Shown: positions 4,357-47,120, numbered from the stretch's first letter. The stretch is DNA of 64,000 bases from an uncultured Chloroflexia bacterium (GCA_963817095.1 CAWFND010000002.1:34841-98840); one strand, 5' to 3'. Made by a program: numbers and translations. Notes: generated by a model from the letters alone, not told the origin.

Positions 4357-5452
4357 ATGACCCACGTGTTCGTCGCGCCGCATCCCGATGACGTTGCGCT
4401 CTCCTGCGGGGGGCTGATCGCGAGCCTCCGGGAGCTCGGCCAGAACGTGACGATCGTGACGGTCTTCTCCGGGGCTGGCGGTCGCCGGCGCGAACGGCGC
4501 ACGCCTGACCGGCTACCAGCGCGAGGCGCTCGGGTTCGGGTCCAAGACGATCTGGCCCGTCACGGAGTCCTTCAACCGGGCGCACATCCGCGCCGACTTC
4601 CCGGTCTACGGCGACCCGGACATGCTGCCCGCGTGGGCCGCGACCGACGACCGGCTCGAGGCGACACAGGGCGACGCGGACGCCGCCGCAAAGCGGTTCT
4701 GGCAGCGCTCGTCGTGGTACCGCCGGGCGAGCATCCGGAGCCAGCCGCTCGCCGGGCAGCCGCTGATGGACGAGCTCAGCACGCAGGGCCCGATCGCGAC
4801 CGAAGAGCTCGTCGACGAGGCGGCCGCCGGCGACCCGATGGCGAAGCGACGTCTCGAGGACGAGACGTTCGCGGCCTTCGCGGAAGCCTCGATCGTCTTC
4901 CTCGACCTGCCCGACGCGGTCTTCCGCGGGTACGAGAACGACGACGAGCTCCTGAACACACCCCGCGTCGACGATGCGGCGCCGTTCGACATCCTTCGCC
5001 GCGAGATCGTCCGTCTCGAGCCGCAGAAGCTGTACCTGCCGCTCGGCGTGGGCAACCACGTCGATCACCAGCTCTGTCGCGACGTCGGGGTGAGCCTGCT
5101 CGAGGAGGGCCGCCGCTGGGTCATGCCCGGTCCCGAGTACGCCGGCATCGTCACGTTCTACGAGGACTTCCCGTACGCGTGGTGGAACGACTTCACGAAG
5201 CTCGAGGACCTGCCGGCCCACGCGCTGGCGAAGGTGCCGCCGGACGTCGGCCTCGCGCCCGACTACGCGGACATCGCCGACCAGCTCGAGCGCAAGATCA
5301 CCGGCATCAACATCTACACGAGCCAGATCGAGCGGCTGTTCACGTCGACGAAGGAGATGGCGCGCCAGGTCCGCGCCAACGCGCGGAAGACGGCGCTGCT
5401 GGGAGGGACGTCGGGCTCGGCCGAGCGCTACTGGTCGACAAAGCCGGCGTAG
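4357..5452 (+). pseudogene. PIG-L/LmbE-family N-deacetylase, reading frame broken once as sequenced
   Basis: The N-terminus MTHVFVAPHPDDVALSCGG...TVFSG is in the frame of ORF 4228. The remainder (LTGYQREALGFGSK...GNHVDHQ...) is in the frame of ORF 4622..5452. Removing one G from the G4 run at 4471-4474 joins the two frames. Confidence 0.8.
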
Positions 5453-5553
5453 GCGGGCACGACAGGCGCGAGCGGGCGCGCCCGGTACCAACGAACCCTA
5501 CCGAGCGCTCGCACGGGCTGGGATGATCGGCGCATGCAGGAGCGCCTGAGCCG

Positions 5554-6837
5554 ATGCTGATGAACCTCGGCCGAGCGGACGTCTCCACGCCCGGATCGCG
5601 GCGCGCGTCGGCGATCATCGTGTTCGCCGTCGCCCTGGGCGTGGCGATGCTCGTCCGGATCGCGCTGTGGCCGACCCTCGGCCTCGTCGGCGACCTCGAC
5701 CAGTTCGTGCTGTGGGTCCACGGAATCGCGACCGCGCCGTTCTCCCACGCCTACGACCAGGACATCGCGTTCCCGCCGGTCATGGCCTACATCTGGAGCG
5801 TGCTCGCCGCAGCCGAGCCGGCCTTCCGGACCGTGACGACGTCGGCGGACCCGGCGATCCGGGCGATCATGAAGGCGCCGGCCAGCATCGCCGACCTCGC
5901 CATCGCCGGCCTGATCGCCTGGCACCTCCGCGCGACCCCGAAGTGGGCGATCGGTGGCGCCCTGCTCGTGCTCCTCCACCCGGCCGTGATCGACGTCAGC
6001 GCCTGGTGGGGCCAGTACGAGTCGATCTACGTCCTGTTCGGGGTCCTGGCGTTCGTCCTTGCCGTCCGCGGCCACTCCCTGTTCGCCGCCGCCGCGCTCG
6101 CCGTCGCGCTGATGACGAAGCCCCAGGCAGTGCCGTTCATCGTCCCGTTCGCGGCCTGGTTCCTGGCCCGTGACGGCTGGAGAGGGGCGCTGAAGGCCGC
6201 CGCGGTCGGCGCGGCGGTCGTGGCCCTGCTCTGGCTGCCGTTCATCCCGGCGGGCGGCGTCCAGGGCTACGTCCACAACCTGGCGGCGTACCAGGGCGAC
6301 GTCTACGCGATCCTGTCGCTCCGGGCGTGGAATCTGTGGTGGCTCGTCCAGGAGCTGCTCGCCGGCGGCTCATTCGTCTCGGACCAGAGCGCGATCCTCG
6401 GCCCGATCACGTTGCGCCACGTCGGGTACGCGCTCGCCCTGCTCGGCGAGCTCGCCGTCTTCGTCCTCGTCTATCGGGCCCGCTCGCCGAAGGCCCTCGC
6501 CCTCGGCCTCGCGGCGGCCGCCCTCGTCGCCTTCAGCCTGCTCACGACGATGCACGAGCGCTACGCCTTCGGTGTCCTCGCCTTCCTCCCGCTCGCGTTC
6601 CCCGACCGTCGCGTCCTCGGGCTCACGATCGTGTTCGGCGTCGCCTACACGCTCAACCTGCTCGCCGCCGCGCCGCCGTCGGAGGCGATCGGCTCGGCGA
6701 TCCCGATCGGTGGACCGCTCGGGGTGCTCGGCTCGATCACGATCCTCGCGGTCCTCGGTGGGATCCTGGTGCTCCTCGCCGACGAAGCCCGGTTCGCCAC
6801 TCAACGAGTCACCCTGATGCCGGACCTGACGCGATGA
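5554..6837 (+). CDS. Polytopic GT-C-type membrane glycosyltransferase-like protein (large class)
   Basis: Intact 427-aa ORF with about 10 or more TM helices. The N-terminal loop (DLDQFVLWVHGIA...) resembles GT-C/DUF2029 enzymes. Its stop overlaps the next gene's start (ATGA at 6834-6837). Confidence 0.65.
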   Translation: MLMNLGRADVSTPGSRRASAIIVFAVALGVAMLVRIALWPTLGLVGDLDQFVLWVHGIATAPFSHAYDQDIAFPPVMAYIWSVLAAAEPAFRTVTTSADPAIRAIMKAPASIADLAIAGLIAWHLRATPKWAIGGALLVLLHPAVIDVSAWWGQYESIYVLFGVLAFVLAVRGHSLFAAAALAVALMTKPQAVPFIVPFAAWFLARDGWRGALKAAAVGAAVVALLWLPFIPAGGVQGYVHNLAAYQGDVYAILSLRAWNLWWLVQELLAGGSFVSDQSAILGPITLRHVGYALALLGELAVFVLVYRARSPKALALGLAAAALVAFSLLTTMHERYAFGVLAFLPLAFPDRRVLGLTIVFGVAYTLNLLAAAPPSEAIGSAIPIGGPLGVLGSITILAVLGGILVLLADEARFATQRVTLMPDLTR

Positions 6838-7658
6838 CCGACACCACGCCCGACGCGACGACGACCGCGGACGAAGCCATCGCTACGCCCGAGCGGACCC
6901 TCCCTGCGCGCCTGATCCGGGTCGTCCTCGCCACGATCATCGGGCTCGAGCTCCTCTGGATCGTGTTCGTGTTCGTCCAGCAGTGGCTGACGAACCCGGC
7001 CTTCGGGCTCGACTACCGCTGGCACGTCGCCGCGGCCCAGCGCCTCCTCGACACGGGCACCCCGTACTGGCCGTGGCAGATCGCCGGGCCGTACGAGATC
7101 AGCGACGGCGCGATCCTCTATCCGCCGACCGCGTTCCTCCTGTTCATCCCGTTCATCTGGCTGCCCGCGGTCCTGTGGTGGGCGGTCCCGATCGCGATCC
7201 TCGTCGTGGGGATGGCGATGAATCGCCCGCCGCTCTGGGCGTGGGCCGTGATCGGCGGGATCGTCGCGTTCGAGAAGTCGCTGAACGTCTTCGTCTTCGG
7301 CAACCCGTCGATGTGGATCGTCGCGGCGATCGCGGCCGGCACGATCCTCGCCTGGCCGTTCGTCCTCGTCGTGGCGAAGCCGACGTTCGCCCCGATCGCG
7401 CTCCTCGGGATCCGTCACCGCTCGTGGTGGATCGCGCTGGCCGTGCTGATCGTGGTCAGCATCCCGTTCGCGGGCGTCTGGCTCGACTGGTTCAAGGTCG
7501 TGACGAACTCGAACGTCAGCCTCGTCTACAACCTGCCGACGCTGCCCCTGATGTGCGCGCCGCTCGTCGCGTGGCTAGCCGGCGTTCGACGCCCGCGCTG
7601 GACGGCGGCGAAATCGGCCGCGCAGCGCAACGACGTACCAGCGCAGGTAGTGGGGTAG
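6834..7658 (+). CDS. Small GT87/DUF2029-like polytopic membrane protein (paralog type A)
   Basis: ATG 6834 is in frame within ORF 6327..7658. The motifs AGPY..ILYPP, GNPSMWIVA and KPTFAPIALLGIRHRSWW are shared with 35770..36576. Confidence 0.7.
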   Translation: MTDTTPDATTTADEAIATPERTLPARLIRVVLATIIGLELLWIVFVFVQQWLTNPAFGLDYRWHVAAAQRLLDTGTPYWPWQIAGPYEISDGAILYPPTAFLLFIPFIWLPAVLWWAVPIAILVVGMAMNRPPLWAWAVIGGIVAFEKSLNVFVFGNPSMWIVAAIAAGTILAWPFVLVVAKPTFAPIALLGIRHRSWWIALAVLIVVSIPFAGVWLDWFKVVTNSNVSLVYNLPTLPLMCAPLVAWLAGVRRPRWTAAKSAAQRNDVPAQVVG

Positions 7659-8329
7659 CCACTTCCGGAGCTGGAAGTTGCTCTGGCCGGCGGTCCGGTC
7701 GCGCCACGTCGTCGGGATCTCGGCGACCCGCCGGCCACCGAGGGTGGCCTTGACGGTCAGCTCCAGCGCAAGCTCGAAGCCGGCGGTGCTCTCGATCGGC
7801 GTCGCCTCGAGGAACGTGCGCCGATAGAGCTTGAAGTTGTTCGTCGGGTCATGGGTGGGGACGCCGGCGATCCAGTGCAGGCTCAGCCCGGCGGTCCGGC
7901 TCATCAGCCGCTTCAGCAGCGGTCCGCCGATCTGGTGGCCGCCCTTCATGTAGCGGCTCGCGGCGACGACGTCGGCGCCGTCGTGGGCCCGCGCCACCAT
8001 CCGGTCGACGATGTGCGGCTCGTCCGAGCCATCTGCCATCGAGATGAGGACGAGGGGTCCGGTCGGTCCCGGCGATCCCCGCCTTCATCGCGTTCAGGAC
8101 GCCCCGTCCCAGGTCGTTGCGGAGGCCACGGAGAACCGGGATCTCGGCCGCGAGCCGGGCGATGACCGGAACGGTCGTGTCGCCGTCGAAGTCGTACACG
8201 ACGACGAGCTCGTGCGACGTGGCGATCCCCGCATGGAGGGCCCGGAGGACGGGCTCGACGGCCTCGCCCTCGTTGTAGACGGGCAGGACGACCGACAGCT
8301 CGGGGAGCGTCGTTCAGGAATTCGGTCAT
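7575..8329 (-). pseudogene. GT2 polyprenyl-phosphate (Dpm1/GtrB-like) glycosyltransferase, two frame breaks as sequenced
   Basis: There are three fragments. The first is MTEFLNDA, the second is PELSVVLPVYNEGE...VVVYDFDGDTT...NAMKAGIAGTDRT, and the third is LVLISMADGSDEPHIV...FKLYRR. Removing one base from the G4 runs at 8302-8305 and 8054-8057 restores a single frame. Confidence 0.85.
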
Positions 8330-8443
8330 GGGTTGAGCATAGGCATCGGTCGGTCGTTCGCGACAGCCCAACTCGGTCCGTCGGGGCCGGCGGAGAAATT
8401 CAGGGTGGCAATTTCGGCCCAAACCGTCGAAAGTGCTCCCCCC

Positions 8444-9243
8444 ATGGAGCTCGCGCCAGCGCTCAAGGTCAACCGATGGGCCGTCCCGGCCGAGCGGTTC
8501 ATCCGAAACGAGCTGCTCCTGCTCGGGATCCTCATCACGTCGGAACGGTCATGCCCCTCCTCCTCGGCGCCGCGTCGGGGGCGGTCGAGATCGCGCGGAA
8601 CGATGACTGGTCGTACCGCCGGATTGCCCTGGAGCTCTGGCAGACGGGCAAGCTCGTCTTCGACAACGTGGCCGCCCCGATGCTCATCGGCCAGATCCTG
8701 CTGGTCCAGCCTCTGCTCTGGCTGATCCACGGCGACAGCCTGGCGTTCGCCATCGGAGGATCCGATCGGGTCGCTGTTCGCGACGCTCGGCGTCTACTGC
8801 GTCGGGGCGTTCGCTGCGGCGTCAGCCGTCGGCGCCGGCGCCTGGCTCTTCGTTGGCTCCGCTCACCGTGCTGACCCTCCAGGGCCTCCTCGCATTCATG
8901 CTCATGGCGAATGCGTTCGCATTCGATGCCGGACGCTGGCGCGGCGGCGAGGACCTCGTAGGGACGAGCCTCGGGCCGGACACGATCGATGCTGGGTACG
9001 AGTGGGTGGGGTACCACGCGACGACGCCTGCGAACCTCTGGCAGCCGGATTCCAACCGCCCCGTCGTACCGCGGATGGTGGGCGGGGTTCCGGACCTGCG
9101 GCCTCGTGACGGGGTCACCGGATCCACCCGCGCACGGGCGCCTGATGGGGATCGAACGCTACCGCCTCTACCTCGTCGCAGGCCCGCTCGTCGATCTCTA
9201 CCTGTTCGGGATCGACGATCCGTCGTGCACGACGGGCCGTTAG
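8444..9243 (+). pseudogene. Membrane protein (NDDWSY motif, GT-C-associated look), reading frame changes about 4 times
   Basis: Protein-like, high-GC3 pieces occur in alternating frames. In order they are MELAPALKVNRW..LLLLGILITS, VMPLLLGAASGAVEIARNDDWSYRRIALELW.., IGSLFATLGVYCVGAF.., LAPLTVLTLQGLLAFML..GYEWVGYHATT.. and GIERYRLYLVAGPLVDLYLFG. Confidence 0.5.
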
Positions 9244-9473
9244 GTGCCCGTCGGCGAGTCCTCGATCGAGACCACGTCGGCCGAGTCCTCGGTCGAGGCT
9301 GCGGGGTCCGACCCTGGCCCCTCGGCCGGAGGAGCCGGCTGCGTCGCGGCTGTGACCTCGGGCTCGTCGCCGAAGATCGGGTTCGGTTGCGTCGTCGGCC
9401 AACCGCCGTGATCGGTCGCGCGCCCACCGCCGTACTTCTCGCGGCGTCGTTCCTGTCGATTCGGTTCTGGCAT
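9240..9473 (-). CDS. Small hypothetical protein with a basic N-terminus and an acidic C-terminus
   Basis: 77-aa ORF (MPEPNRQERRREKYGG...EDSADVVSIEDSPTGT) with reasonable GC3. It is the last gene of the minus-strand operon. No family recognised. Confidence 0.4.
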   Translation of the reverse strand: MPEPNRQERRREKYGGGRATDHGGWPTTQPNPIFGDEPEVTAATQPAPPAEGPGSDPAASTEDSADVVSIEDSPTGT

Positions 9474-9498
9474 GCGGCGATCATCGCACGCCGGTCCG

Positions 9499-10534
9499 TC
9501 AGCCCGTACCGGGCTCGGCAGTCACGAGTCCTGGCGCGCCGGGCGAACGCGGTTCGACCGACGGGACCAGTGTGACTGCAGATGCATAGCGGTACGCCGC
9601 CAAGCCCAGCAGGACGGGTGCGAGGAGCCAGAAGCTGAAGACATTCAAGGGGATCGCGCAGACGACGAACTCCATCCAGGCGACGTCATCACGGAGATCG
9701 GCACGATCAGGAACAAGCCCAACAAGCCGACTGCGACAAGCCTCGTGATCAGGACGGTGTCAACTCCTGGGACGAGGCGCTGGAGCAAGACGGACGGAGC
9801 GACATTCGTGGCAATGACCTGCTCGATGTTCTGGAATGCGACGAGAAAATCGGACAGGACATTGCTTCCGGTGATCAGGCAGAGGCCAAGCACGACGCCG
9901 ACCGCCGCCGCGGTTGCAGCGATCAGTGGCCTTGTCCTGCCTGTGCGGACCATGTAGATCGCCAGGGGCACGGCAGGAACGATCTTGATCGAAGCGAGGA
10001 AAACGCCAACTGCCAGGAGTGACGACCGATTCTGCCGCACGCCGATCACCCATACGACCAATCCGAGAACGACGAGGGCTTCTGCGTTCGCCCAAGCGAC
10101 AACCATCCACAAGGGCGTCGAGGTCACCAGCAGCGCGATCGTCAGAAGCCGATGTCGAGAGGGCACGGCAAGGACGACCGCGAGCGTCATCGCGATCACG
10201 ATGGTGAGCCACCAGACGGTCGCTCCGAGAATTGCCGGCAGGGCCGCCGCCGGGACGACCAATGGCAGGAACCACGGGGGCATGTTGAACATGCCGCTGA
10301 ATGCCGGAGACAGATAGTCGTATGGGCCGGCCAACAGCCGCGGGTCGTACAGCGGCAGGCCGCGAACCAGTCGGTCGAATCCATCGCGATACGTTGCCCA
10401 ATCGGCCCGAGGACCGACGGATATCTCGCGTAGGGGATCAACAGCTCGTTGAGGATCAGTCCGACAAGCAGCAGCGACACCCACGGGCGATCCGAACCCG
10501 GCGGCCATGCGACGCGGCGACGGATCTCGCGCAC
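9499..10534 (-). pseudogene. GT87/DUF2029-like polytopic membrane protein, two frame breaks, lower GC3 than its neighbours
   Basis: The N-terminus VREIRRRVAWPP..LLLVGLILNELLIPYA (ORF 10196..10534) comes first. The core LPLYDPRLLAGPYDY...ASIKIVPAVPL (ORF 9645..10508) follows. The C-terminus VAWMEFVVCAIPLNVFSFWLLAPVLLGLAAYRY is in a third frame and ends at 9499. Confidence 0.6.
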
Positions 10535-10545: not shown

Positions 10546-11562
10546 TCAGGAACGTTGCGGGGCGGCCGTGAGTTCAGGCTGGTCGGGGTCGAAGGACGAC
10601 GAGCGCATCCACGCGGCCGTTCGCTCGAGGCCCGAGGTCAGCGTGACCTGCGGCGCCCAGCGGAGCATCCGACGGGCTTTCTCGATGTTCACGACGCGGC
10701 GCCGGATGTTGTCGATGTCGCGGCGGTCGATGTGCACGACGTCGACGTCGACGCCCACGGCCCGGCCGATCTTCAGGGCGAGATCGTTGACCGACGTCTC
10801 GATGCCGGTCCCGACGTTGAACACCTCGCCCTCGGCCCGGGGGCGGATCGCCGCGAGGAGGGTCGCGTCGACCGCGTCGTCGATGTACGTGTAGTCGCGG
10901 GTCTGCTCGCCGTCGCCGTGGACCTGGAGGGGCTTGCCGTCGATCGCGGCGGCGAAGAACTTGGCGATGACGCCGCAGTACGGGTTGTCCGGGCGCTGGC
11001 CGACGCCGAAGACGTTCGAGTAGCGGACGACCGAGACCGGGACGCCATAGTTCTCGTAGAAGGCATTGCAGTACAGCTCGCCACCGAGCTTGCTGACCGC
11101 GTACGGCGAGAGGGCGACCGGCGGATCGTCCTCGTTGATCGGGATCGATCGGGGATTGCCGTAGATCGACGTGGAGCCGGTGTAGACGATCCGGTCGACC
11201 TTCGAGTCGCGCGCCGCGAGGAGGATGTTCAGCGTCCCGCCGATGTTCGTCGAGAAGTCCTCGCGCGGGTCCTTCGTGCTCGCGATGATGTTCCGGGCGG
11301 CCATGTGGAAGACGACCGAGGCGTCGGCGACGAGCTCGCGGACGAGGGCCTCGTCGACGACGGTTCCGGTGACCAGCTGGGCGCTCGTGGGGACCGTTTC
11401 GGCCCGCCCGGTGAAGAGGTCGTCGAGGACCGTGACGCGGGCGCCGGCCTCGGCCAGGCGGCGAGTCACGGCACCACCCACGAAGCCGGCACCGCCGGTG
11501 ACGAGGACGCGCCGGCCGGAGAAGGCTCGGGCGACCTGGTCGGTCATCCGTGGCTCGGTCAT
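10546..11562 (-). CDS. NAD-dependent nucleotide-sugar epimerase/dehydratase (extended SDR)
   Basis: VLVTGGAGFVGG Rossmann motif and catalytic YAVSK. Intact 338 aa. Confidence 0.9.
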   Translation of the reverse strand: MTEPRMTDQVARAFSGRRVLVTGGAGFVGGAVTRRLAEAGARVTVLDDLFTGRAETVPTSAQLVTGTVVDEALVRELVADASVVFHMAARNIIASTKDPREDFSTNIGGTLNILLAARDSKVDRIVYTGSTSIYGNPRSIPINEDDPPVALSPYAVSKLGGELYCNAFYENYGVPVSVVRYSNVFGVGQRPDNPYCGVIAKFFAAAIDGKPLQVHGDGEQTRDYTYIDDAVDATLLAAIRPRAEGEVFNVGTGIETSVNDLALKIGRAVGVDVDVVHIDRRDIDNIRRRVVNIEKARRMLRWAPQVTLTSGLERTAAWMRSSSFDPDQPELTAAPQRS

Positions 11563-11575: not shown

Positions 11576-12343
11576 TCATCGCTTCACCCCGGCGCGCAGG
11601 AGGATTGCCGGCCGGAACAGCCGCCACCAGTCCTTCAGGCCACGCATCTTCGTGTAGCCCTCCCTGGCGTGGTAGCGGACGGTGCACGGCACCTCGATCA
11701 CCTTGTACCCGCGACGGATCGACTTGTACAGCACGTAGGGCTCCAGGTCGTAGCTCGTGAGCCAGTCCTGGTCGAGGTCGATCTTCGGGTCGCGGAGGAT
11801 GTCGGCCTTGAAGATCCGGAAGCCGTTCGTCGCATCGGTGACGCGGCGGAAGACGAGGATCGAGAAGACGACCGAGTAGAGCCGCGTGCCGAAGCTGCGG
11901 TGTCCGATCGGGCCCACGACCCGGCCGCCCTTGCGCCAGCGGGAGCCCTGGGCGTAGTCGGCGCCGGCGGCCTCGAGGGCAGCGAGCGCGGTGATCAGCT
12001 CCGCGGGTTCGTGCTGATCGTCGCCGGACAGGAGGGCGAGGTACTTGCGCTCGCGCCGGAGCCCTTCCTTCCAGCCATCGCGGATCGCGGCACCCACGCC
12101 TCCGCGCTCCTCGTGGCGGATGACGACCGCAGCGCCGTGCTCGCGCGCCTCGTCGCCCGTCCCATCCGTGGAGCCGTCATCGACGACGATCGCCTCGAAC
12201 CAGCCGCTCGTGGGCAGCTTGTCGAGGACGCGGCCGATCTTGCCGGCCTCGTTGAGGGCGGGAATGATGACGGCGACGATCGGCGTGACGGGGGGCGGCC
12301 GATCGCCCTCCACGGCGGTCGGCACAGGCGATTCTGCTTCCAC
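11576..12343 (-). CDS. GT2 glycosyltransferase (polyprenyl-phosphate sugar synthase-like)
   Basis: VAVIIPALNE...VVDDGSTDGT...LSGDDQHEP (DxD-like)...NGFRIF. Intact 255 aa. Confidence 0.85.
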   Translation of the reverse strand: MEAESPVPTAVEGDRPPPVTPIVAVIIPALNEAGKIGRVLDKLPTSGWFEAIVVDDGSTDGTGDEAREHGAAVVIRHEERGGVGAAIRDGWKEGLRRERKYLALLSGDDQHEPAELITALAALEAAGADYAQGSRWRKGGRVVGPIGHRSFGTRLYSVVFSILVFRRVTDATNGFRIFKADILRDPKIDLDQDWLTSYDLEPYVLYKSIRRGYKVIEVPCTVRYHAREGYTKMRGLKDWWRLFRPAILLRAGVKR

Positions 12344-12547: not shown

Positions 12548-13577
12548 TCAGCCAGCCGGTGCAGGCTCCGTTCGACCGCTGAAGTCCAAGCCTCGGGCGC
12601 CTTCGGTCCACGGGGCGGCCAGGGCGAGCAGCGATACGAGACCCGATGCGTACAGCGCGGGCGTTCCGAGGACCGATGCAAGAAGGGCGGCAATGAACGA
12701 AGCGCGCGGCCATCGGCTTCCGAGCAGCCAGCTCGCGACGAACCCGAGCACCAAGAACGCATAGCTGGCCCAGGAGATGCCCGTGAGCCCGGAGATGCTC
12801 AACTCTGTCGGCTGATTGCCGGAGAGCGTCCCGAGGTAGGCCACGTATGACCCGGGCCCTGCCCCGATCGCGCCGAGCGCGAACATGAAAGCCAACGCCG
12901 CGAACGCAGCGCCGACAGCGGCCCAGCGCCGGCCACCGGCCATCCAGCCCGTCATGGCCATCGGCGACAGCTTGATCGAGGCAGCGAAGCCGATCAGCGC
13001 GCCGGAGGCAGGCCGCGCTCGAAGCCGCCACACCAGCGATGTACAGCGCGGGCATGAACGCGTTGACATTCGCGACGGCCAACTGTTCACCGATCGCGTG
13101 TGAGAGCAGGAGGGCGAGCAGGACCCCGGGCAGACCAGTCTTGACGACGACGAAGAGGACCGTACCGAGCAAGGCAACCCAACACGCGACCACCCAGAGC
13201 GTGATCCCCCAGTCCACGGCGGCGAGCGGACGCCACAGGACAGCGATCGGCGGCGGCGAGAGCAACGGGGCGGTGTAGAGGCCAGGAATCGTCAGCACCG
13301 GCAGGTCGCCCGGGACCAAGTGGTAAAGGTCGTGTCCGATGTTCAGCCGATCTCCCGCTGCCCGATATGTCATGGCGTCGGTGAACGGCTCCATGAGGTT
13401 GCCGGGTTCGTTGTAGACGGAAAAGTTCGCGGATGTCCAGGCGAGGGCGGTGCCCACGACCAGCGCGATGAGCAACACGTTGAGGATCCTGCGGATCGTC
13501 GGGCTCACCGGACGATTCGGGATCCGAGCGATTCGAGGGACCTCGGGCCTGATCCCGGGTTCCAGAACGTTGGTCAC
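12548..13577 (-). pseudogene. GT87/DUF2029-like membrane protein (paralog type B), one frame break
   Basis: GTG 13577 forms a GTGA overlap with the upstream stop. The N-terminal part carries PLLSPPPIAVLWRPLA...NVNAFMPALYIAG. The C-terminal part (ORF 12548..13177) carries WRLRARPASGALIGFAASIKLSP. The whole protein is colinear with 34847..35773, and the break lies at ~13030-13045. Confidence 0.7.
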
Positions 13578-14596: not shown

Positions 14597-15263
14597 TCCG
14601 ACCTCCGCGGCGCGCCGGCCGACGTACGAGCGTCTGCCGGCCGAGGATCCACCAGGCCGGCCGGAATGCGAGATACGCTCGGACGAGCCAGCCGTTCTGC
14701 GGGAACTTGCTCTTCGTCGTGTAGGGCAGGAACCGGACCACGAGCTCCTCGGTCTCGAAGCCCGCGGTGTCCGCAGCCTCTTCCAGGCTCTTCTCGGTCA
14801 GCGGCGTCTTGTGATCGAGGAAGTCCCAGTACGAGCCACCGACGAGACGGATGTTCGGCTGGAGGATGATCACCCGCCCGCCGGGCCGGAGCACCTGGCC
14901 GACGACCTTCAGCTGGGCGACGACCTCGTCCGCCGAGCCGAGGTGCTCCAGGTAGTTGCTCATGAAGACCACATCCACCGAGGCGGGTGCGATGTGGTCG
15001 AGGATCTCGAGGCCGTTGCTCTGGACGAACCGCACGCCCGGATCCAGGTGGGCCCGGACGTCGCGCAGGTCGACGGCGATGCGATCGCCCGCCTTGACGA
15101 CGTTGATGAACGCGCCGCGATCGCAGGCGAGGTCGAGGACCGTCGACGACGGATCGATGTAGCGCTGGAGGAACCGCGTGATCTCGCGCCAGACCTCGCC
15201 GCGTCGCGGCGAGTCGGCGTCGCTGAAGCGCCGGGCGTAGATCGCCGGAAGGTCATCGTCCAC
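14502..15263 (-). CDS. Class I SAM-dependent methyltransferase; 3' end uncertain
   Basis: VLDLACDRGAF (motif I) and LRPGGRVIILQPN. The Arg-rich tail overlaps the next gene by 95 nt. In another frame a TGA forms a GTGA overlap with GTG 14596, so a late frame error is possible. Confidence 0.75.
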   Translation of the reverse strand: MDDDLPAIYARRFSDADSPRRGEVWREITRFLQRYIDPSSTVLDLACDRGAFINVVKAGDRIAVDLRDVRAHLDPGVRFVQSNGLEILDHIAPASVDVVFMSNYLEHLGSADEVVAQLKVVGQVLRPGGRVIILQPNIRLVGGSYWDFLDHKTPLTEKSLEEAADTAGFETEELVVRFLPYTTKSKFPQNGWLVRAYLAFRPAWWILGRQTLVRRPARRGGRSEDPRHRRRRVHQRLPRARAPRGRSRRRRAR

Positions 15264-31256: not shown

Positions 31257-31310
31257 GCGGTCGTGCGGATCGCCACGCCGTCGTGCGGGCGACGCGTCAA
31301 GGCAGGCCGG

Positions 31311-38314: not shown

Positions 38315-39853
38315 TCAGGGGGAGACGATCGCACCGTTCGGGTCATCCAACTGGTGCAAGTCGTACGGCCCGGAGTCGCTGAACATGTACGACGGCGCCG
38401 GGTCGACGCGCGGAAACGTCGTCCCGAGGACCGGGTTCAGGAGGTCCGGGAAGACGTTGACCAGGGTCTCGTCGTCCGGGAGCGGATGGTCGTTGCCGGG
38501 CACCCGGGCTGCGAGGAGCGGCAGGAAGCGGAGACGTGCGTCGCCGGGCATCGCGCCGACCCACGAGCCGTGGTCCCCGAACACGAGGATGATCGGCGGC
38601 ACCGCGGCCTCGCGCTCGATCGCGTCGATCTCCTCCAGCACCGGCTGATGGAGGTACTCGACGGAACCGGCGTAGCCGGCCTTGAGCTGGTCTTCGGTCA
38701 GACCCGTCTGGGCCGGATCATCGGCGTACAGGGCGTGGATGTCAGTGACCGTTCGGGGACTGCCGTCCGCGTTGAAGACCCATGGCGGATGGGGCTCGGA
38801 ACGTGATCGAAGATGAACCGGGGATGGCCCGGGTTCTCGGCCGCGAGCGTCGACAGCATCCCGAGGTTGGTCGTGATCCGATTCCGCGCCTGCTGACTCG
38901 CGAAGTCCGGCGCGAGGATGTTCAACGCGTCCCCGAAGACCGTCCGGCGGAGCATGCCGATCTCGACCTCGTTCATGGCCGCCCCGGTCGTGATGAATCG
39001 GTCGGCCTCGCGGAGGCTGACCTCGGCGAAGCCGGACGAGATCCCGACGATCTCGTAACCCCGTTGATGGAGCGCATCGAACAGCGGGTTCTCCATCACG
39101 ACCCGGTGGGTGATCGCTGTCTCTGCCACGTGGCTCGTCCCGCTGAGCACCGGTGGACAGGGCCGGGATGTCCTGCAGCAGCTGCATGTTGAACATCGCC
39201 ATCAGGACCTGGACCGTGTTCGGGTAGTTCGTCAGGGCCTTCGAGGACACGCTGAGCCCGCGCGTGGCCAGCCCGTCGAGGAACTCGGTCTCGTCGACGG
39301 CGAAGACCTGCTTCAAGGCGTCGGCTCGGGCATACCCGTCGAGGAGGATCACGTAGATGTCCGGGGTCGCCGGTGAGGTGACGCCGGTGAACGTTCGTGG
39401 CGCGCGCAGTGGGGGCTCGTTCGTGATCGAGCGGGTGATGACGTCGATCCCACCGAGCTGGAACGCCTCGACGACGATCGCGAGGCACAGGACAAGGGCG
39501 AACACCCGAGAGATCCGGCCGATCTGCGGCCACGACACGCGGACGCGGCCGCGCAGGAGGCGACCCTCCACGAAGAGGAGGGCGATCAGGATCAGCGCGA
39601 CCAGGAGGAGGCGCGGGTCGCCCCCGACGAGCGCGACCACCGTAGCGAAGGCGGCGACCCCGGCCCGGTCGCGATCGCCCAGCAGGAGCCGGAGGATGAC
39701 CGATACCACGATGCCAATGACCGCGACGACGATGAGGGCACGCAGCGACACCCACAGCCCCACGCCGTTGATGGCGATCAGCTGAAGGAACAGAGCCAGC
39801 GCCACGACGATCGGGTAGAGCGGCACGTCGAAGAAGCCGCGCCAGCCAGTCAC
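38315..39853 (-). pseudogene. Membrane-anchored alkaline-phosphatase-superfamily (LtaS/sulfatase-like) transferase, two frame breaks
   Basis: GTG 39853 forms a GTGA overlap with the upstream stop. There is an N-terminal TM bundle. Then come DIYVILLDGYARAD...TNYPNTVQ, the middle ORF 38698..39150, and the C-terminus ILVFGDHGSW. The breaks lie at ~39152 and at the G4 run 38791-38794, where five G would be needed. Confidence 0.75.
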
Positions 39854-41498
39854 AGGCGACGGGTCATGCGCAGGAGGATCCGGGACGACCCCGGGATCGG
39901 CTGCTCGTCCAGGATCCGGTACCGCCGCTCGAAGGCGGACCGGAACCCCGCGACATCGTAGTCGTGGAAGACGTCCTCGCGGGTGGCCAGCAGGCGGCGG
40001 ACCATCGAGTCGTCGCGGCCCACCCATTCGATGATCAGATGCGGGGCCAGCGTCGCCAGAAAGTCCGCGATCCGGGGCAGCGGAACGTTCCGCCCGATCG
40101 CGAGGTGGTGGACGAGGGCGAGGGCGAGGACGACATCCGCGTCGGCACGCTCGACGATCGATCGGCGCTCCTCGAGGGCCCAGCCGACGGCGGGGCTCGG
40201 GTCGGCGAGGTCCACGAGGAGCGGCAGGATGGCGGTGGCTCCGCGGGTGCCGGAGGCTCCGGTAGTGGCGCTCGACCGCGGCCGGGATCGCGCGTCCCAC
40301 GCGACGACGCGGCGACCGAGGTCCGCGGCGATCGCGCTGTGCCGCCCGACGTTCGCCCCGAGATCCCAGACGACCTGCCCGCCCGCGTCGGCGAGCATCG
40401 CCCGGACGAGGACGTCCTTTGCATCGGCGATCGTGCGAGCAGCGTCGTCGGCGGCGTCCCCTTGCTCATAGTCGGCCCACTCCGTGCCCGTTGGCGTCCA
40501 GTCGAGCCCCGTCACGGTTCGCCGCAGGTTGTCCAGGAGCGCCTCCCCGCCGAGCCTCCCGACGGACGCGCGACGCGCCTCCGCGGCGGCGGCATCACCG
40601 CGCGCCTCATGCGTCCGCTGCGCCCGCGCGTGCAGGTGGAGATGAGCGCTCAGGCCCGGGTTGACGCGCGTCCGCCCGGGCAACAGACGGGCGGCGAGAT
40701 CGAGCGGGATGCCGTCGAGATGACTGCGCTGGAGCCCGCCGAGCCGGACGTCGCGGCGGGCCATGAGGGCGAGCGGTGCAAGGAAGTGTTCGCAGAACTG
40801 GCGATACGCCGCCCATGGGGCGCCAGGCTCGGCAGGAGCGAGCGAGAGGGTATCGACGAGGATCGGCCGACCGCTCCGGAAGAGGACGTTGTAGGCGCTC
40901 GCGTCGCGGAGCGTGAAGCCCGCGGCGGCCGCTTCCGCCTGGATGTCGAGGGTCAGAAGGGCCGCGTCCCGGAGCATCCCGAACGACCACTCGTACGGAT
41001 AGGAGACGAACTCCACCTCGAGCGGGCGGATGACCGCATGGGCGCGTTCGGGATCGGCGGCGAGGCCGAGGTCCGCGGGCTCGTGCGGGATCAGCCGGCC
41101 GTCGGCCTCGAGGCGCTCGAGCAGGCCGCTCGCGACGAGGCGGTCCCAGCGGTCGCCGAACGATCGATCGACCTGGCGCAGGAGGATGCCGTCGCGGCGA
41201 TAGACGAAGCCGGCCGGGTCCCGGAAGGACGCCGGTTCCCGGAGGACCGCCCCGTCGGCCGCGGGAGCCTCGCGCTCAGGGCCGATGGAGCCCGTTGCTC
41301 CCTCCGATGGGCTCAGTTCGCGCGGTCGGCCGGGCTGTCGGCCGGGGTCGATCGCCCGCCGAGCCGGCCCAGCGAGCGCACGACGCGCGCGATCTGACGA
41401 CGGAGGAAATACGGGATCGTCAGCAGCGCAGCGATCGTCGCCTGGACGACCAGGCTTCCGGCACCGGGGTCGATATACGCGACGAACCAGTGGTGCAT
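39850..41498 (-). pseudogene. Class I SAM-dependent methyltransferase-like protein, probably with an N-terminal TM anchor supplied by ORF 41313..41498; frame-broken
   Basis: The methyltransferase frame is open from 41502 and protein-like (VLREPASFRDPAGFVYRRDGILLRQVDRSF..) but has no ATG/GTG/TTG before 41016. The adjacent 61-aa ORF MHHWFVAYIDPGAGSLVVQATIAALL.. ends at 41313 in a neighbouring frame. Motif I is VVWDLGANVGRH. A compensated frame excursion occurs at ~40245-40295. Confidence 0.6.
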
Positions 41499-41643
41499 GC
41501 GGTCAGGGTCCTTCGTTGGTCGCGCCTCACCCCCGGCCTGCGTAGCGAGATGCTACTCCAAGACTCGGAGTGGTTCCTTCGGCGGGCACTCTCCCATGGC
41601 GCCCGGGCTTCCGAACGACCCGAATGTCCCATCAGGGTCCCGG

Positions 41644-42839
41644 TCACTGCCGGGCGCGCGTTGGCCGGCTCGCCCGGACGGCGACCAGCACGAGACCGAT
41701 CGCGAGCCAGACGAGCGGCAGGAAGGCGATCGCGACGGCCGCGACGACGAGGGCGGCGGCGACCAGCAGCCGGACCGCGGCCGAACGCCGGACCGCCGTG
41801 GCTGCGAAGCAGGGCGACCAGCCCGAACGGCAGCATCGCCGACGGGTAGTGGAACCAGGTGACCGGCAGCGTGGCCAGGGAGGCGGCGGCGGCCCAGCCG
41901 AAGCGCTCGACCGGGTCGCCGCCACGGCGGCCGGCGACGACCGACACGACGATGACCGCGAGCGTCACGCCGATCTGCGCAGTGCGCGCGAACCGGTCGT
42001 CCGCGCCGAGGAGGAGCGCCAGCTGGGCCGCGGGGCCGGCGTTCCGCGGATCGACGAGGTCGGCGTTGCTGCCGGCCCGGATCACCGCGAGGTAGTCGGT
42101 CCAGGGCGTGATCCCCCAGACCACGACGCTGACCGCGAGGAGGGCGATACCGACGAGGACGGCGACGAGGAGCGCGCGAGCGCTCGCCCGGTCGCCGCCG
42201 ACCGTGCGGGTCCCGAACCACACGCCGAGCGATGCCGGGTGGAGCTTGGCGATCGACGCGGTCGCGAGGGCGAGCCCGCCGGCCCGCTGGCTGGCGGAGG
42301 TGGTCCCCGGCGCCACCGCGAGGAGCATCGCCCCGTAGAGCAGCGGGAAGAACACGTCGAGGTTGCCGAACAGCAGCCCGATCGCGAACGGGAAGCAGAG
42401 TGGGGCGAGGGCGACGACCGGGACGACGACCGAGCGCGTCGAGAGGTCCGGGGCGAACCGCCTGCCGAGCGCCGCGGCGACCGCGGCGAGTCCCGCGACG
42501 GCAGCCGCGCCCCAGGCAAGGAGCATCACCGGTGACGGGATCGGCGCGAAGAGCGCCATCGCCTGGGCGACGACGGGTGGGTACGAGTAGAAGAGGCTCT
42601 CGGCGACCGGCGCAGTGCCGGCGACGAGCGCCGGGTCATAGGGCGATCGGCCGGCGGCGACGTCGCGGCCAGCCCGGAGGAGGAGCTCCAGGTCGAAGCC
42701 GGCCTTCGGCGGTGTCGCGGCATACAGCGTCGCCCCGAGCCAGAGCAGTCCGAGCCAGCCGACGATCCCGAGGACGACGAGGGCCCCGCGTGGCGACGGA
42801 CCGCGTGGCAGCCGGGCGGATCGCCAGCTCGTCGGTCAT
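41644..42839 (-). pseudogene. GT87/DUF2029-like membrane protein, two frame breaks
   Basis: ATG 42839 forms an ATGA overlap with the upstream stop. The N-terminus MTDELAIRPAATRSVATR is followed, after the C4 run 42784-42787, by ALVVLGIVGWLG..GFDLELLLRAGRDVAAGRSPYD..LFYSYPP..SIAKLHPA. The tail is in the frame of ORF 41644..41925. Confidence 0.7.
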
Positions 42840-43820: not shown

Positions 43821-45498
43821 GTGCGGATCCCGATCCTTCTCTATCTGCTCGCGCTCGTCGTCCGGATCGGATTGGTGATCCTCTACCCCGACCCGGCGTA
43901 CCCCGATTCCTACTACTACGTCGACGTGGCGCGCGCCCTCGCCGCCGGCCACGGGCTGAACCTCGACTTCATCTGGATCTTCGCCGAAGTCGGCAACAGG
44001 ATCCCGGCCAACCCCGTCCTGCCGATCCCCGGCAATGCCCACTGGCTGCCGCTCGCGTCGTTCCTCCAGGCGCCGTTCATCGCGGTCCTCGGCCCCACGA
44101 CCCTTGCCTCCGCGATCCCGACGGTCCTCATCGGCTCGATCACCGCGCCGCTGGCGTGGTTCATCGCCCGCGACGCCGGTTCGCTCAAGGCTGTCGGCAT
44201 CGGAGCCGGCGTCCTCTGCGCGATCCCCGCGGCCGGTGCCGTCTTCATGGCCCAGCCCGAGAACTTCGCGATCCTCCAGCCGCTCGTCGCGGCAACGATC
44301 TGGATGACGGTCCGGGGCCTGAAGGGCAGCACGCGCTCCTACGTCGCCGCGGGCTTCCTCGTCGGGCTCGCATCCCTCGCCCGGAACGACGGCTTCATCC
44401 TCGGCCTCGCGGTGGGCCTCGTGTTCGTGTGGGACCGCGGCCGCTCCTGGCTGTCCCGCGGCGCGACGCCGCCCCGGCTGCCGTGGCGGGCGGCCTTCGG
44501 CTGCCTGGCGCTCTACCTCGTCGTCATGGTGCCGTGGTTCGCCCGGCAGCTGGCCACGTTCGGCTCGATCTCGCCGACCACGTCCGGCGGCAGCGCGCTC
44601 TGGATCCGGACGATCCAGGAGTGGAACAGCATCACCGCGGATCCGTCCCTCGCGAAGTTCCTGGCCCAGGGCCCGGGCCCGATCATCGCGTCGCGGGTCG
44701 GCGGGCTGCTGTCGGCGATCGGCAACTTCGCGGTGATCATCTGCTCGGTCGTCCTCGTCCCGTTCCTGCTCGTGGGCGCGTGGCTCCGGCGACGCTCGAT
44801 CGACTTCGGGCCGTGGTTCCTCTACACGTTCCTCGTCTTCCTCGGGGCGACGTTCCTCTACCCGCTCCACGTCCCGGGCGGCGCGTTCATCCACTCGGCG
44901 GTCGGGCTCGAGGCCTACGCCTACATCCTGGCCCTCGAGGGCGTCGCTGCGCTCGTGATGTGGATCGCCCGGCGCCGGCCCAACTGGAACCCGAAGACCG
45001 CCGTCCCGCTGTTCGTCGGGGCGGTGGTGATCTTCGTCGTCGCGACCGCGCCGCTCTATGCGGTCGCCCTGGGCTCCGCGTGGAGCGAGAGCCGCGCCCC
45101 GCGGGTCGCGCTGGCGAACCAGATGGCCAGCCTCGGCGTCGGTCCGGACGACCGACTGCTCACGATCGACAGCGCGGGCCTGAAGTACTTCACCGGCCGC
45201 CCCGGGATCGTGACGCCCGACGACCCGATCGAGACGATCGAGCAGGTGGCGCGCGCGTACGGCACGCGCTGGCTCGTCCTCGAGCGCGACGACATCGTCC
45301 GGTCGCTGGCGCCGATCCTCGCCGGCGGCACGCGCCCATCCTGGGTCGGGGCCGCCGGTGTTCGTCGTCCCCGCGGCCGATGGCGGGCCGGCCCGGCTCG
45401 CGCTGTTCCCGATCTGCCTCGACAACAGCGATGACCGCTGCGCCGGAGGCCCGACGCTCGCCGGCGGTCCGATCCTCGCGGACGCGCGTCGCCCGTGA
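43821..45498 (+). pseudogene. Large GT-C (ArnT/PMT_2-like) glycosyltransferase, one frame break near the 3' end
   Basis: YPDSYYYVDVARALAAGHGL..., SLARNDGFILG. Removing one G from the G4 run at 45348-45351 gives ...SWVGPPVFVVPAADGGPARLALFPICLD..ARRP, with a stop forming a GTGA overlap with GTG 45495. Confidence 0.8.
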
Positions 45499-47120
45499 CC
45501 CGCCGCGAGGCGGTGCTGTCGGCCGCGGTCATCTTCGTCATCGCGCTGGCGATCCGCTGGTACGCTGCGAGCCTCGTCGTGTTCCCGAAGCCGGAGGACA
45601 CGGCTTACTACGTCGACGTCGCCCGCAACCTCCTCGGCGGCCGTGGCCTCGTCAGCGACTCGCTGTGGAGCTTCCAGACCCTGCCGCTCGTCGTGCCGCG
45701 GGCGGCGTTCGAGGTCTGGCTGCCGCTCCCGACGTTCGCAGCGGCCATCCCGATGGCCCTTCTCGGATCGACCTTCGCCGCGGCGCAGGTCAGCTCCGTC
45801 CTCATCGGTGCGCTGGTGCCCGTCCTTGCCTGGCGGCTCGCCGCGGACGTCGCCGAGGAGCGGGCCCTGCCCCAGGGCCGGGCGCGGACCCTCGCAATCG
45901 GGACGGGGATCACGGCGGCCGTCTCGCTGCCGCTCATCCTCCATTCCGCGCTGCCCGACTCGACCATGCCCTTCGCCGTTCTGACCCTGGCGGCGTGCCT
46001 GCTGATGGCGCGGATCCGTCGGGCGATCGTGGCGGACGGCTCGACAACGGCAGTGACCCGGCGGTTGGTCGGCCTTGGAGCGATCCTCGGTCTCGCCGCA
46101 CTGACGCGGAACGAGGCGCTCTGGCTGGGCCTCGCCTGGGCGGTGATCGCGGTCACCCTGCCGGTCGCAGCCGGGGATCGCTTCCGCGTGATCGCGGTTC
46201 CGGCGGTCGTGGCGCTGGTCTTGTTCCTCCCCTGGATGATCCGCGACCAGATCGCCTTCGGCAGCCTGCTGCCGGGCCAGGCCCTGAGCAATGCCCTGTC
46301 GCTCGACGGATCGGACATCTTCGCGTGGCAGGACCCACCGACCCTGTCGCGCTATCTCGCCGCCGGCTTGCCCCGTCTCGTGGAGCTGCGGGTGCTCGGG
46401 ATCGGCCACAACCTGTTCGACGTCCTGCTGTTCCCGGGCGCCCCACTGTCGTTCATCGGCCTGATCGGCCTGCCGTGGATCGCCCGCCTGCGGTCCGTCC
46501 AGCCGCTGCTGATCGTCTCGGTCCTGATCTTCGCGATCACGGGGTTGCTCTTCCCCGTGTCGACGACCTGGGGGACGTTCCTCCATGCGGCGGGCGCAAT
46601 CCACGTCCTCATGATCGTCTCGGCCCTCCTCGCCCTCGACGCACTGATCGCCTGGCTGGGCCGGCGGCGCGGCTGGCATCGGCCGGTCGCCTGGCTCGCG
46701 CCGGCCCTCACGGTGTCCGGCGCAATCCTCTTCTCGGTCGTCTTCCTCCCGGCGTTCGGGAGCGGATCGGCGGCGACCGAGCGGACGTTCGCCGCCCTCG
46801 ACACCCGGCTGGCCGGCGCCGGGGTCCCGCTCGGTGGCGAGCAGCCGGTCATCACGGACGCCCCGATCTGGCTCCCCTACGTGGGCGGCGGAACCGCGCT
46901 GGCACTCCCGTTCGAGGCGCCGAGCAGCGTCCTCGACCTCGCCCGGCACTTCGGGGCATCGACGGTCGTGGTCGTGGGCGGGGACCATCCCTTCCCGGCA
47001 AGCGTCGCGGCCGGCGGTGAGGGATCGGACTGCTTCCATGAGGTCGCGCTGCCGGGCAGTCCGCTCCTGTCGAGCGAGGACTCGGACCCGACACGTGTCT
47101 ATCGGGTCTCGTGCCCGTGA
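45495..47120 (+). CDS. Large GT-C (ArnT/PMT_2-like) glycosyltransferase
   Basis: Intact 541 aa: PEDTAYYVDVARNLLGGRGL, ALTRNEALWLG. About 12 TM helices plus a C-terminal soluble part. Confidence 0.8.
   Translation: MTRREAVLSAAVIFVIALAIRWYAASLVVFPKPEDTAYYVDVARNLLGGRGLVSDSLWSFQTLPLVVPRAAFEVWLPLPTFAAAIPMALLGSTFAAAQVSSVLIGALVPVLAWRLAADVAEERALPQGRARTLAIGTGITAAVSLPLILHSALPDSTMPFAVLTLAACLLMARIRRAIVADGSTTAVTRRLVGLGAILGLAALTRNEALWLGLAWAVIAVTLPVAAGDRFRVIAVPAVVALVLFLPWMIRDQIAFGSLLPGQALSNALSLDGSDIFAWQDPPTLSRYLAAGLPRLVELRVLGIGHNLFDVLLFPGAPLSFIGLIGLPWIARLRSVQPLLIVSVLIFAITGLLFPVSTTWGTFLHAAGAIHVLMIVSALLALDALIAWLGRRRGWHRPVAWLAPALTVSGAILFSVVFLPAFGSGSAATERTFAALDTRLAGAGVPLGGEQPVITDAPIWLPYVGGGTALALPFEAPSSVLDLARHFGASTVVVVGGDHPFPASVAAGGEGSDCFHEVALPGSPLLSSEDSDPTRVYRVSCP

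Follow-up and report, generated by a model that had tools for sequence, protein, structure and literature searches.

The 64,000-nt window analysed here, a stretch of DNA from the metagenome-assembled genome (MAG) of a soil Candidatus Limnocylindria (Chloroflexota), contains at positions 4357–47120 (counted, like all positions below, from the first letter of the window) a large locus of membrane glycosyltransferase genes, which probably encodes an assembly line that builds a branched envelope glycan outside the membrane from polyprenyl-phosphate sugars. Seventeen genes for glycosyltransferases of the GT-C class occupy 19.8 of the 42.8 kb of the locus (46% of the DNA); outside it, at 62272–63948, there is an 18th. 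The 17 are made up of 12 PimE/GT87-like proteins, three PMT_2/ArnT-like proteins and two families that are orphans in sequence searches. A sequence-only reading of the same DNA had proposed about 18 GT-C genes with a 19th at a distance; the enrichment and the coordinates held, while the count came down to 17 plus one distal gene. That reading also listed seven large ArnT/PMT_2-like genes, and we found support for five (16602, 18251, 32294, 43821 and 45495; genes are named by their first position), because 22259 turned out to be an over-extended GT87 gene and 38315 to be sulfatase/LtaS-like. The present analysis adds the source taxon, the frameshifts in at least eight genes, a fused MFS/SpeE membrane protein, an S8/fn3 protease and the conservation of the locus across the class.

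GT-C glycosyltransferases of the locus

Eight open reading frames (ORFs) reached the Pfam gathering score for GT87 (PF09594, 25 bits), namely 9645, 12548, 22259, 33562, 34847, 36501, 41420 and 42836, with 29.6–75 bits, and two others stayed below it, 5554 with 21.2 bits and 31311 with 23.8 bits. HHalign comparison of family alignments built from related loci connected 31311–32414 with the GT87 paralogs at a probability of 94–98%. Two short proteins, 6834–7658 and 35755–36576, which HHalign alone ties to the GT87 paralogs, complete the group; they are paralogues of each other (36% identity by tblastn, 7e-33), and homologues of the former occur in 38 loci. Among 26 members of the 5554 family, 15 matched ALG6_ALG8 and 13 matched GT87, with matches to ALG3 as well, and the family profile found PIG-M (6.9e-10) and ALG6 (1e-8) among solved structures. 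The resulting 12 GT87-like genes agree with the 11 or 12 given by the sequence-only reading, whose motifs (a loop-1 Asp, Y-Y-P-P, K-x-x-P and WDHY) were also seen.

The family profile of GT87a (33562–34644) matched the PimE structure 9dm5 with E = 1.8e-14. Residues D29, Y33, Q129, K161 and the W-D-H motif of GT87a align on D58, Y62, Q163, K195 and W319/H321 of PimE. D58 is the catalytic base of PimE, and mutants of D58, Y62, Q163, K195 or W319 lose activity (PMC12041525). The loop-1 Asp and the phosphate-binding Lys are present in all 12 GT87-like paralogs, and the Tyr in nine of them. Paralog-to-paralog identity is only about 23–40% and each paralog has nearer orthologues in other MAGs, from which it follows that the duplications are old and that the GT87 complement is variable. 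Two genes of this group differ in length from their sister-MAG homologues: the 699-aa ORF at 22259 is an over-extension of a GT87 protein of about 294 aa, the size of its homologue in a sister MAG, and 9645–10508 has a sister-MAG homologue of 345 aa and was probably shortened at its C-terminus by the adjoining 1.3-kb insertion (Table 1).

Three of the larger genes belong to the PMT_2/ArnT-like group. The Pfam PMT_2 (PF13231) cut-off of 26.1 bits was exceeded by 43821–45434, and 45495–47120 resembles it with 29% identity over about 520 aa (4e-31). Loop 1 of the former keeps D29, Y32, Y33 and D49, and the same residues are conserved in the latter, where the acidic pair is D35/D55. The third protein, 16602–18350, had no Pfam match itself; PMT_2 was matched by 12 of its 29 database relatives, its family aligned with the 43821 family at an HHalign probability of 87%, and D63 and R82–D83 of its loop 1 are invariant. 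Since its homologues measure about 490–530 aa, its true start probably lies further downstream. The distal GT-C at 62272–63948 forms a single ORF (61231–63948, + strand) with an endonuclease IV (Nfo, TIGR00587, 191 bits; 61231 to about 62150), the two domains being bridged by an Arg/Pro-rich linker; the fusion may be genuine, or else an indel may have deleted the stop codon of nfo and joined two separate genes.

No match to either orphan family, 18251–19696 or 32294–33565, was obtained in Pfam, NCBIfam or PDB sequence searches, and PDB searches with single sequences and profiles of both orphans and of the 16602 family returned nothing. Profile–profile comparison of the orphans with GT87, PMT_2 and other families was not significant (2–24% probability), so that their assignment as GT-Cs comes entirely from the predicted fold and the acidic residues of loop 1. 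We modelled both proteins with AlphaFold2, using alignments of their protein-database relatives as input, and compared the models by Foldseek. The 18251–19696 model (predicted local distance difference test score, pLDDT, 91.9) gave 19 PDB matches at E ≤ 1e-3, all of them GT-C, including STT3 (1.4e-6, TM-score about 0.6), DPY19, AglB, ArnT, AftD, PglB and AftA, and its D28 and D49 are invariant. An oligosaccharyltransferase of the GT66 type (STT3, PglB, AglB) was ruled out as its identity: it has no WWDYG or W-x-D-Y-G motif and hence is not a canonical enzyme of that kind, its sole WW being W296–W297 (WWPFV), upstream of the predicted C-terminal soluble domain. For 32294–33565 (pLDDT 78.5), the top 16 Foldseek matches all have the GT-C fold, among them ALG12 (1.1e-3), AglB, PimE, ArnT, ALG3, Pmt1/2 and EmbB; D53 in its loop 1 is invariant and D59 nearly so. 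Relatives of each orphan family number well over a thousand in the protein database; the top ones are unnamed or annotated "hypothetical", and the few organism names given are Limnocylindrales or Chloroflexota. Conserved acidic residues in the loop after the first transmembrane (TM) segment were found in each of the five larger families (16602, 18251, 32294, 43821 and 45495). The GT-C assignment of the sequence-only reading thus survived hidden Markov model and structure searches, given the PimE profile match, the Asp and Lys residues shared by all GT87-like paralogs and the predicted folds of the orphans.

Candidate donor synthases, accessory genes and conservation

Three GT2 genes lie among the GT-C genes, every one of them adjoining a GT87 gene; GT2 no. 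3 and GT87 36501–37481 share 4 bp, where the stop of the former lies over the start of the latter. The three proteins share 23–29% pairwise identity. GT2 no. 2 has dolichyl-phosphate-mannose (Dol-P-Man) synthase 5mlz as its best solved relative (E = 1.4e-11), and GT2 no. 3 has ArnC (1.2e-11) and Dol-P-Man synthase. These nearest relatives are in keeping with the interpretation first put forward from the sequence, in which lipid-linked donors feed GT-C enzymes outside the membrane. NCBIfam returned AglJ, Dol-P hexose transferase and PpgS for GT2 no. 2, and all GT2 matches in this database, ArnC included, fall far under the equivalog cut-offs.

The accessory genes proposed by the sequence-only reading were mostly confirmed, namely the three GT2s, the GT4, two short-chain dehydrogenase/reductase (SDR) genes, the nucleotide-sugar dehydrogenase, the PIG-L deacetylase, the CelD-like acyltransferase (an Acetyltransf_6 protein) and the LtaS-like protein; of its two methyltransferases the second, 39850–41016, was not firm. 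The PIG-L match lies in an N-terminal piece (4333–4470, 36 bits against a cut-off of 28.2), and the translation carries PHPDD and GNHVDH motifs. The SDR at 10546–11562 matched LegB, GalE and RmlB in NCBIfam, in each case under the equivalog cut-off, and the nucleotide-sugar dehydrogenase has its N-terminal and central domains in one frame and its C-terminal domain in another. The LtaS-like protein has about four N-terminal TM segments and one gene piece in a second frame. Pfam Sulfatase (PF00884) was matched by 14 of 17 members of its family, which share an invariant DHG and other invariant residues, and the window copy itself has no such match, probably due to its internal frameshift. As candidate GT-Cs, 38315–39853 was ruled out by this sulfatase likeness and 39850–41016 because the protein is soluble.

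The MFS/SpeE protein was reconstructed in three frames against its 878-aa homologue in locus L004, which scored 107.5 bits in NCBIfam NF037959 (cut-off 40). We consider it a candidate lipid flippase or modifier; no function for this family of fusions is described in the searchable literature. Within the subtilase gene, a 291-bp tandem repeat at 24171–25465 (− strand; 4.4 copies, 98% identity) encodes fn3 domains, and such near-identical repeats are prone to assembly collapse or expansion. Downstream of the last PMT_2 paralogue, the start of the HisKA_3 kinase overlaps the GT-C stop by 10 bp, and this kinase/LuxR pair adjoins PMT_2 genes in 15–17 of 49 related loci.

We obtained these related loci by searching the GT87a protein against one genome per GTDB species. 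The search returned 80 loci, almost all in MAGs labelled Candidatus Limnocylindrales/Limnocylindria or "uncultured Chloroflexia", with a best amino acid identity of 87%, which places the source of the window in Limnocylindria. Conservation was counted in the 49 loci with at least 20 kb around GT87a, for genes within 10 kb of it, with minimum thresholds of 45% identity and 50% of the protein length for a counterpart (Table 1). A variable periphery surrounds a conserved core. The LtaS-like gene, with some match in 13 of the 49 loci and none close, lies outside the core, as does the subtilase, which has any match in four loci and none that reaches 45% over 50%. Related loci have between 2 and 9 GT87-like copies in 21 kb. 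This conservation of the core alongside a changing set of GT87 genes suggests species-specific differences in glycan structure.

Table 1. Genes and other features of the locus and its surroundings, with sites of frameshifts and the number of related loci (out of 49) that hold a counterpart
Position	Strand	Feature	Basis	Frameshift	Loci with counterpart
4357–5452	+	PIG-L/LmbE-like deacetylase	PIG-L match and motifs	near 4470	
5554–6837	+	GT-C, ALG6/PIG-M/GT87-like, 427 aa, about 9 TM	family hits		
6834–7658	+	short GT87-like protein, 274 aa, 6 TM	HHalign 98% against GT87 paralogs		
7575–8313	−	GT2 no. 1, Dpm1/ArnC-like	Glycos_transf_2, 30 bits on N-terminal piece	near 8080	
8314–9613		unique 1.3-kb insertion between GT2 no. 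1 and GT87	no clear coding signal or recognisable gene		
9645–10508	−	GT87-like GT-C	Pfam GT87, 29.6 bits		
10546–11562	−	SDR nucleotide-sugar epimerase/dehydratase	Pfam Epimerase, E = 2e-55		
11576–12343	−	GT2 no. 2, Dpm1-like	Pfam GT2		
12548–13574	−	GT87-like GT-C	Pfam GT87, 36.7 bits; tblastn in two frames	near 13040	
13574–14596	−	second SDR epimerase/dehydratase	Pfam Epimerase, E = 3.7e-38		
14502–15263	−	class I S-adenosylmethionine (SAM) methyltransferase	Pfam Methyltransf_23, Methyltransf_11		
15285–16480	−	nucleotide-sugar dehydrogenase	TIGR03026, 194.5 bits, above cut-off	near 15700	
16602–18350	+	divergent PMT_2-like GT-C	family-level match		
18251–19696	−	orphan GT-C family, C-terminal soluble domain	predicted fold		16 (some match in 28)
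19707–20955	−	GT4 (GT-B fold), cytoplasmic	Glyco_transf_4 and Glycos_transf_1 in different frames	near 20400	38
20955–22220	−	Acetyltransf_6 (GNAT/FemAB-like, CelD-like) acyl- or aminoacyl-transferase	PF13480, E = 9e-32		42
22700–23600	+	GT87-like GT-C inside over-long ORF 22259–24358	Pfam GT87, 33.5 bits		
23705–28840	−	large secreted subtilase with fn3 repeats	Peptidase_S8 and fn3 matches in different frames	several	
28861–31310	−	fused MFS/spermidine-synthase-like (SpeE) membrane protein	three frames against L004 homologue	two	45 (SpeE-like domain)
31311–32414	−	GT87-like GT-C	GT87, 23.8 bits; two frames against L004 homologue	near 31630	
32294–33565	−	second orphan GT-C family, 423 aa, conserved core	predicted fold (moderate)		44
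33562–34644	−	GT87a, PimE-like GT-C, anchor of conserved core	Pfam GT87, 75 bits		48
34847–35773	+	GT87-like GT-C	Pfam GT87, 44 bits		
35755–36576	+	short GT87-like protein, 6 TM	HHalign 98% against GT87 paralogs		
36501–37481	−	GT87-like GT-C	Pfam GT87, 47.5 bits		
37478–38284	−	GT2 no. 3, ArnC/Dpm1-like, conserved core	Pfam GT2, E = 2e-23		48
38315–39853	−	membrane-anchored sulfatase/LtaS-like transferase (alkaline-phosphatase superfamily)	family hits	present	
39850–41016	−	soluble protein, class I methyltransferase-like motif VVWDLGANVGRHS	weak: FkbM family, E = 0.037		10
41420–42835	−	GT87-like GT-C	Pfam GT87, 33.9 bits		
42836–43708	−	GT87-like GT-C	Pfam GT87, 48.4 bits		
43821–45434	+	PMT_2/ArnT-like GT-C	Pfam PMT_2, 43.6 bits		23–24
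45495–47120	+	PMT_2-like GT-C, paralogue of 43821–45434	HHalign 100%; no direct PMT_2 match		23–24
47111–49014	+	HisKA_3 histidine kinase and LuxR-type response regulator	Pfam hits		
62272–63948	+	distal PMT_2-like GT-C	Pfam PMT_2, 27.7 bits		

Frameshifts and integrity of the assembly

At least eight genes of the window are frameshifted relative to intact homologues (Table 1). Because of these frameshifts many genes were mis-called by codon models and by G+C content at third codon positions; gene calling by these means alone was unreliable, and the gene models required homology to Illumina-assembled MAGs and to the sister-MAG contig. This contig (L081, L001) is collinear with window positions 5607–44585 (5607–28588 and 24033–44585) at 82–88% nucleotide identity. 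The sister MAG has called counterparts of six of the frameshifted genes, and every one of these is a single intact gene there; they code for a GT2 of 253 aa, GT87 proteins of 343 and 294 aa, a dehydrogenase of 398 aa, a GT4 of 399 aa and a protease of more than 1560 aa. In addition, the segments past the frameshifts keep 66–83% protein identity to Illumina-assembled homologues. Since the sister genes are intact and the segments after the shifts still match, the frameshifts are probably assembly indels. Most of the sites do not lie in homopolymers, long ones in particular, and for this reason the explanation by assembly error relies on the intact sister genes.

We also considered that this copy of the locus is decaying and non-functional, the frameshifts being real pseudogenising mutations. 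The splitting of at least eight genes between frames and the position of most sites outside long homopolymers are compatible with decay, as is the unique 1.3-kb insertion that shortens one GT87 gene; this insertion is absent from sister locus L081, and no homologue of it was found in the 80 loci searched. However, decay does not fit well with the six genes that are intact in the sister MAG or with the identity retained past the shifts, and the frameshifted genes include core genes conserved in 38–45 of the 49 loci (GT4, MFS/SpeE). The contig names of the nearest relatives moreover suggest long-read assembly, in which indel errors are expected. Decay therefore appears improbable to us, and the preferred explanation by assembly indels points to a systematic indel problem, from which any analysis of this MAG at the level of genes would suffer.

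Assembly of the locus from unrelated contigs was a further concern raised along with the sequence-only reading. The collinearity with one sister-MAG contig over about 39 kb establishes that the locus is not chimeric, Illumina MAGs (L004, L012) show the same order of genes, and the G+C content is even across the window (about 70% overall, range 67–75%). No point in favour of a chimera was found, and it is effectively excluded.

Candidate products and comparison with known pathways

In the assembly line that we propose, nucleotide sugars would be tailored in the cytoplasm by the two SDRs, the nucleotide-sugar dehydrogenase, the methyltransferase and the PIG-L-like deacetylase, and the three GT2s, which appear to have diverged anciently, would load different sugars on polyprenyl phosphate. 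The GT4, possibly together with the Acetyltransf_6 protein, would prime a membrane acceptor on the cytoplasmic side. Acceptor and lipid-linked donors would then be flipped, for which the MFS/SpeE protein is the only transporter-like protein of the conserved core; LtaA is an earlier example of an MFS protein that flips a glycolipid (PMC8866510). On the outer side, up to 17 GT-Cs, each probably using one donor and making one linkage, would extend and branch the glycan, the LtaS-like enzyme could add a phospho-substituent or transfer the product, and the HisKA_3/LuxR pair may regulate the locus. The data show the gene content, the GT-C fold with its conserved catalytic residues, the family of the GT2s and the conservation across the class, while the sugars, the acceptor, the anchor and the product are what we infer from them. 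The product would most likely be a branched heteroglycan, anchored to a lipid or associated with the wall, of the kind of phosphatidylinositol mannosides, lipomannan and lipoarabinomannan (PIM, LM and LAM).

Synthesis of PIM, LM and LAM begins with cytoplasmic GT-A/B steps, which are followed by flipping and by GT-C steps that use polyprenyl-phosphate mannose, the donor coming from a Dpm1-like enzyme (PMC3229680). The locus resembles this mycobacterial and corynebacterial pathway in its cytoplasmic GT4, its Dpm1-like GT2s (Ppm1 there) and its PimE/GT87 and other GT-Cs outside the membrane. It differs in that it belongs to Chloroflexota and not to Actinomycetota, in its three different candidate donor synthases and the MFS/SpeE fusion of its core, and in two GT-C families without sequence relatives among described families. 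A PatA-type acyltransferase, LpqW and phosphatidylinositol or inositol genes, which belong to the mycobacterial pathway, were likewise not seen in Pfam and NCBIfam scans of the window.

The locus also recalls eukaryotic glycosylphosphatidylinositol (GPI)-anchor synthesis and the N-glycan (ALG) pathway of the endoplasmic reticulum lumen, with a GT4 (PIG-A class), a PIG-L-like deacetylase, Dpm1-like GT2s and ALG6/PIG-M/ALG3-like GT-Cs. Transferases of the alkaline-phosphatase superfamily act in the GPI pathway as the PIG-N/O/G class, and the locus has a transferase of the same superfamily. This likeness is one of families and not of demonstrated orthologues, there is no transamidase, and the same families serve bacterial pathways too. 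A more specific reading, which we hold only tentatively, is that one locus makes a LAM/GPI-like, lipid-anchored branched heteroglycan of Limnocylindria almost wholly outside the membrane, with three donors, at least 17 GT-Cs and the MFS/SpeE protein as glycolipid flippase or modifier. If this were true, it would be the first such lipoglycan assembly line outside Actinomycetota, and the variable GT87 set would diversify the surface glycan between species.

Some systems with fewer enzymes share part of this set. In three-component systems (GtrA, GtrB and a Gtr GT-C; or polyprenyl-phosphoribose synthase, a MATE flippase and GT136), a GT2-type synthase works with an extracytoplasmic GT-C (PMC11127046). 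The locus shares with them a GT2 beside a GT-C, here in the form of a GT87 neighbour for each GT2. However, these systems add single side-chain sugars to a finished polymer, and no GtrA-like (4-TM) or MATE-type flippase was found in the locus when unassigned ORFs of at least 70 aa with at least two TM segments were scanned. The ratio of 17 GT-Cs to three GT2s implies the assembly of a whole glycan rather than decoration. ArnT/ArnC modification of lipid A and O-mannosylation by Pmt likewise share PMT_2 GT-Cs with the locus, one GT2 of which has ArnC as its best solved relative, but each of those systems uses one GT-C and one donor. Chloroflexota are increasingly regarded as monoderm, which makes lipid A an unlikely acceptor.

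The same chemistry could also serve a product without a lipid anchor, either a peptidoglycan-linked secondary wall polymer of the arabinogalactan kind or a released exopolysaccharide. Mycobacterial arabinogalactan is likewise made by GT-Cs with polyprenyl-phosphate-sugar donors, and the sulfatase/LtaS-like enzyme could act on such a polymer. However, neither a ligase of the LCP (LytR-CpsA-Psr) family nor Wzx/Wzy nor an ABC exporter turned up when the called genes were scanned with Pfam and NCBIfam, the unassigned membrane ORFs added no candidate when scanned, and the LtaS-like gene stands outside the conserved core. We regard a product of this kind as rather unlikely.

Protein glycosylation was weighed as well, in which the GT-Cs would O-, N- or C-glycosylate secreted or surface proteins with polyprenyl-phosphate sugars in the manner of Pmt, PglB and DPY19; targets could be the subtilase of the locus with its many fn3 domains, the nearby Flp pilins or an S-layer protein. 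The presence of PMT_2-family members, the best structural matches of 18251–19696, which modify proteins (STT3, DPY19, AglB and PglB), the very large secreted fn3 protein encoded inside the locus and the four Flp pilin genes 3.4 kb downstream are all consistent with it. However, 18251–19696 lacks WWDYG, the subtilase is not a core gene (its matches in four loci are weak), and 17 enzymes far exceed the needs of known protein O- or N-glycosylation. Moreover, PimE/GT87-like proteins, whose family is known to act on glycolipids and glycans (PMC12041525, PMC3229680), make up 12 of the 17 GT-Cs, and the cytoplasmic GT4 and the acyltransferase in the core suit a lipid primer better. Protein glycosylation is thus an unlikely main role of the locus, and we favour a lipid-anchored or wall-associated heteroglycan.

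Several observations weigh against the proposed assembly line. The frameshifts in at least eight genes of this assembly would, if real, leave the locus copy non-working. The fold support for the core orphan 32294–33565 is modest (best E = 1.1e-3, TM-score 0.45–0.48). No GT2 or SDR reaches an NCBIfam equivalog cut-off, so the sequence does not give the identity of the sugars. The scan of unassigned ORFs described above found no GtrA-, Wzx- or ABC-type flippase, and that the MFS/SpeE protein acts as a flippase is a guess. As acyltransferase the locus has a GNAT/FemAB-like protein instead of a PatA-like one, and inositol and phosphatidylinositol genes are missing from the window.

The class of mechanism and the majority of the families have been described before; new are the host lineage, the combination of 17 GT-Cs with three candidate donor synthases in one conserved locus, the two sequence-orphan GT-C families and the conserved MFS/SpeE partner. 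Literature searches found no description of the locus or of a GT-C expansion in Limnocylindria, and nothing in the searchable literature contradicted the earlier claim that no described locus holds as many GT-Cs. Limnocylindria are an abundant uncultured class of soil and freshwater, with no cultured representative to our knowledge, and Chloroflexota envelopes are poorly understood. The locus predicts a major, complex surface glycan in this class and supplies concrete genes with which to seek it. With it, an unrelated phylum would have extended the mycobacterial strategy, in which polyprenyl-phosphate sugars are the material for glycans built outside the membrane. Its core and variable periphery resemble diversification of the O-antigen type, here by way of GT-C enzymes, and its diverged PimE-like enzymes form a natural set for studies of donor and linkage specificity. 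The two GT-C families that escaped Pfam, NCBIfam and PDB sequence searches are of interest in themselves, accompanied as they are by the conserved MFS/SpeE partner.

The surroundings of the locus hold genes of other kinds. An ORF with a DUF5317 and an MFS_3/MFS_1 transporter domain (1–2118, + strand) extends past the left edge of the window. After the HisKA_3/LuxR pair, 49024–50270 (+ strand) encodes a small coiled-coil protein with a weak match to CT398_CC and a second, truncated-looking HisKA_3 protein, in which no ATPase-domain match was found. Four tandem genes for Flp/Fap-type pilins of 56–63 aa follow at 50566–51921 (+ strand), 66–86% identical to the first and spaced about 370–410 bp apart. 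The pilin genes are followed at 52161–57930 by a complete Tad-type pilus operon with CpaB/RcpC, a CpaE-like ATPase with a receiver domain, CpaF and two TadB/C proteins.

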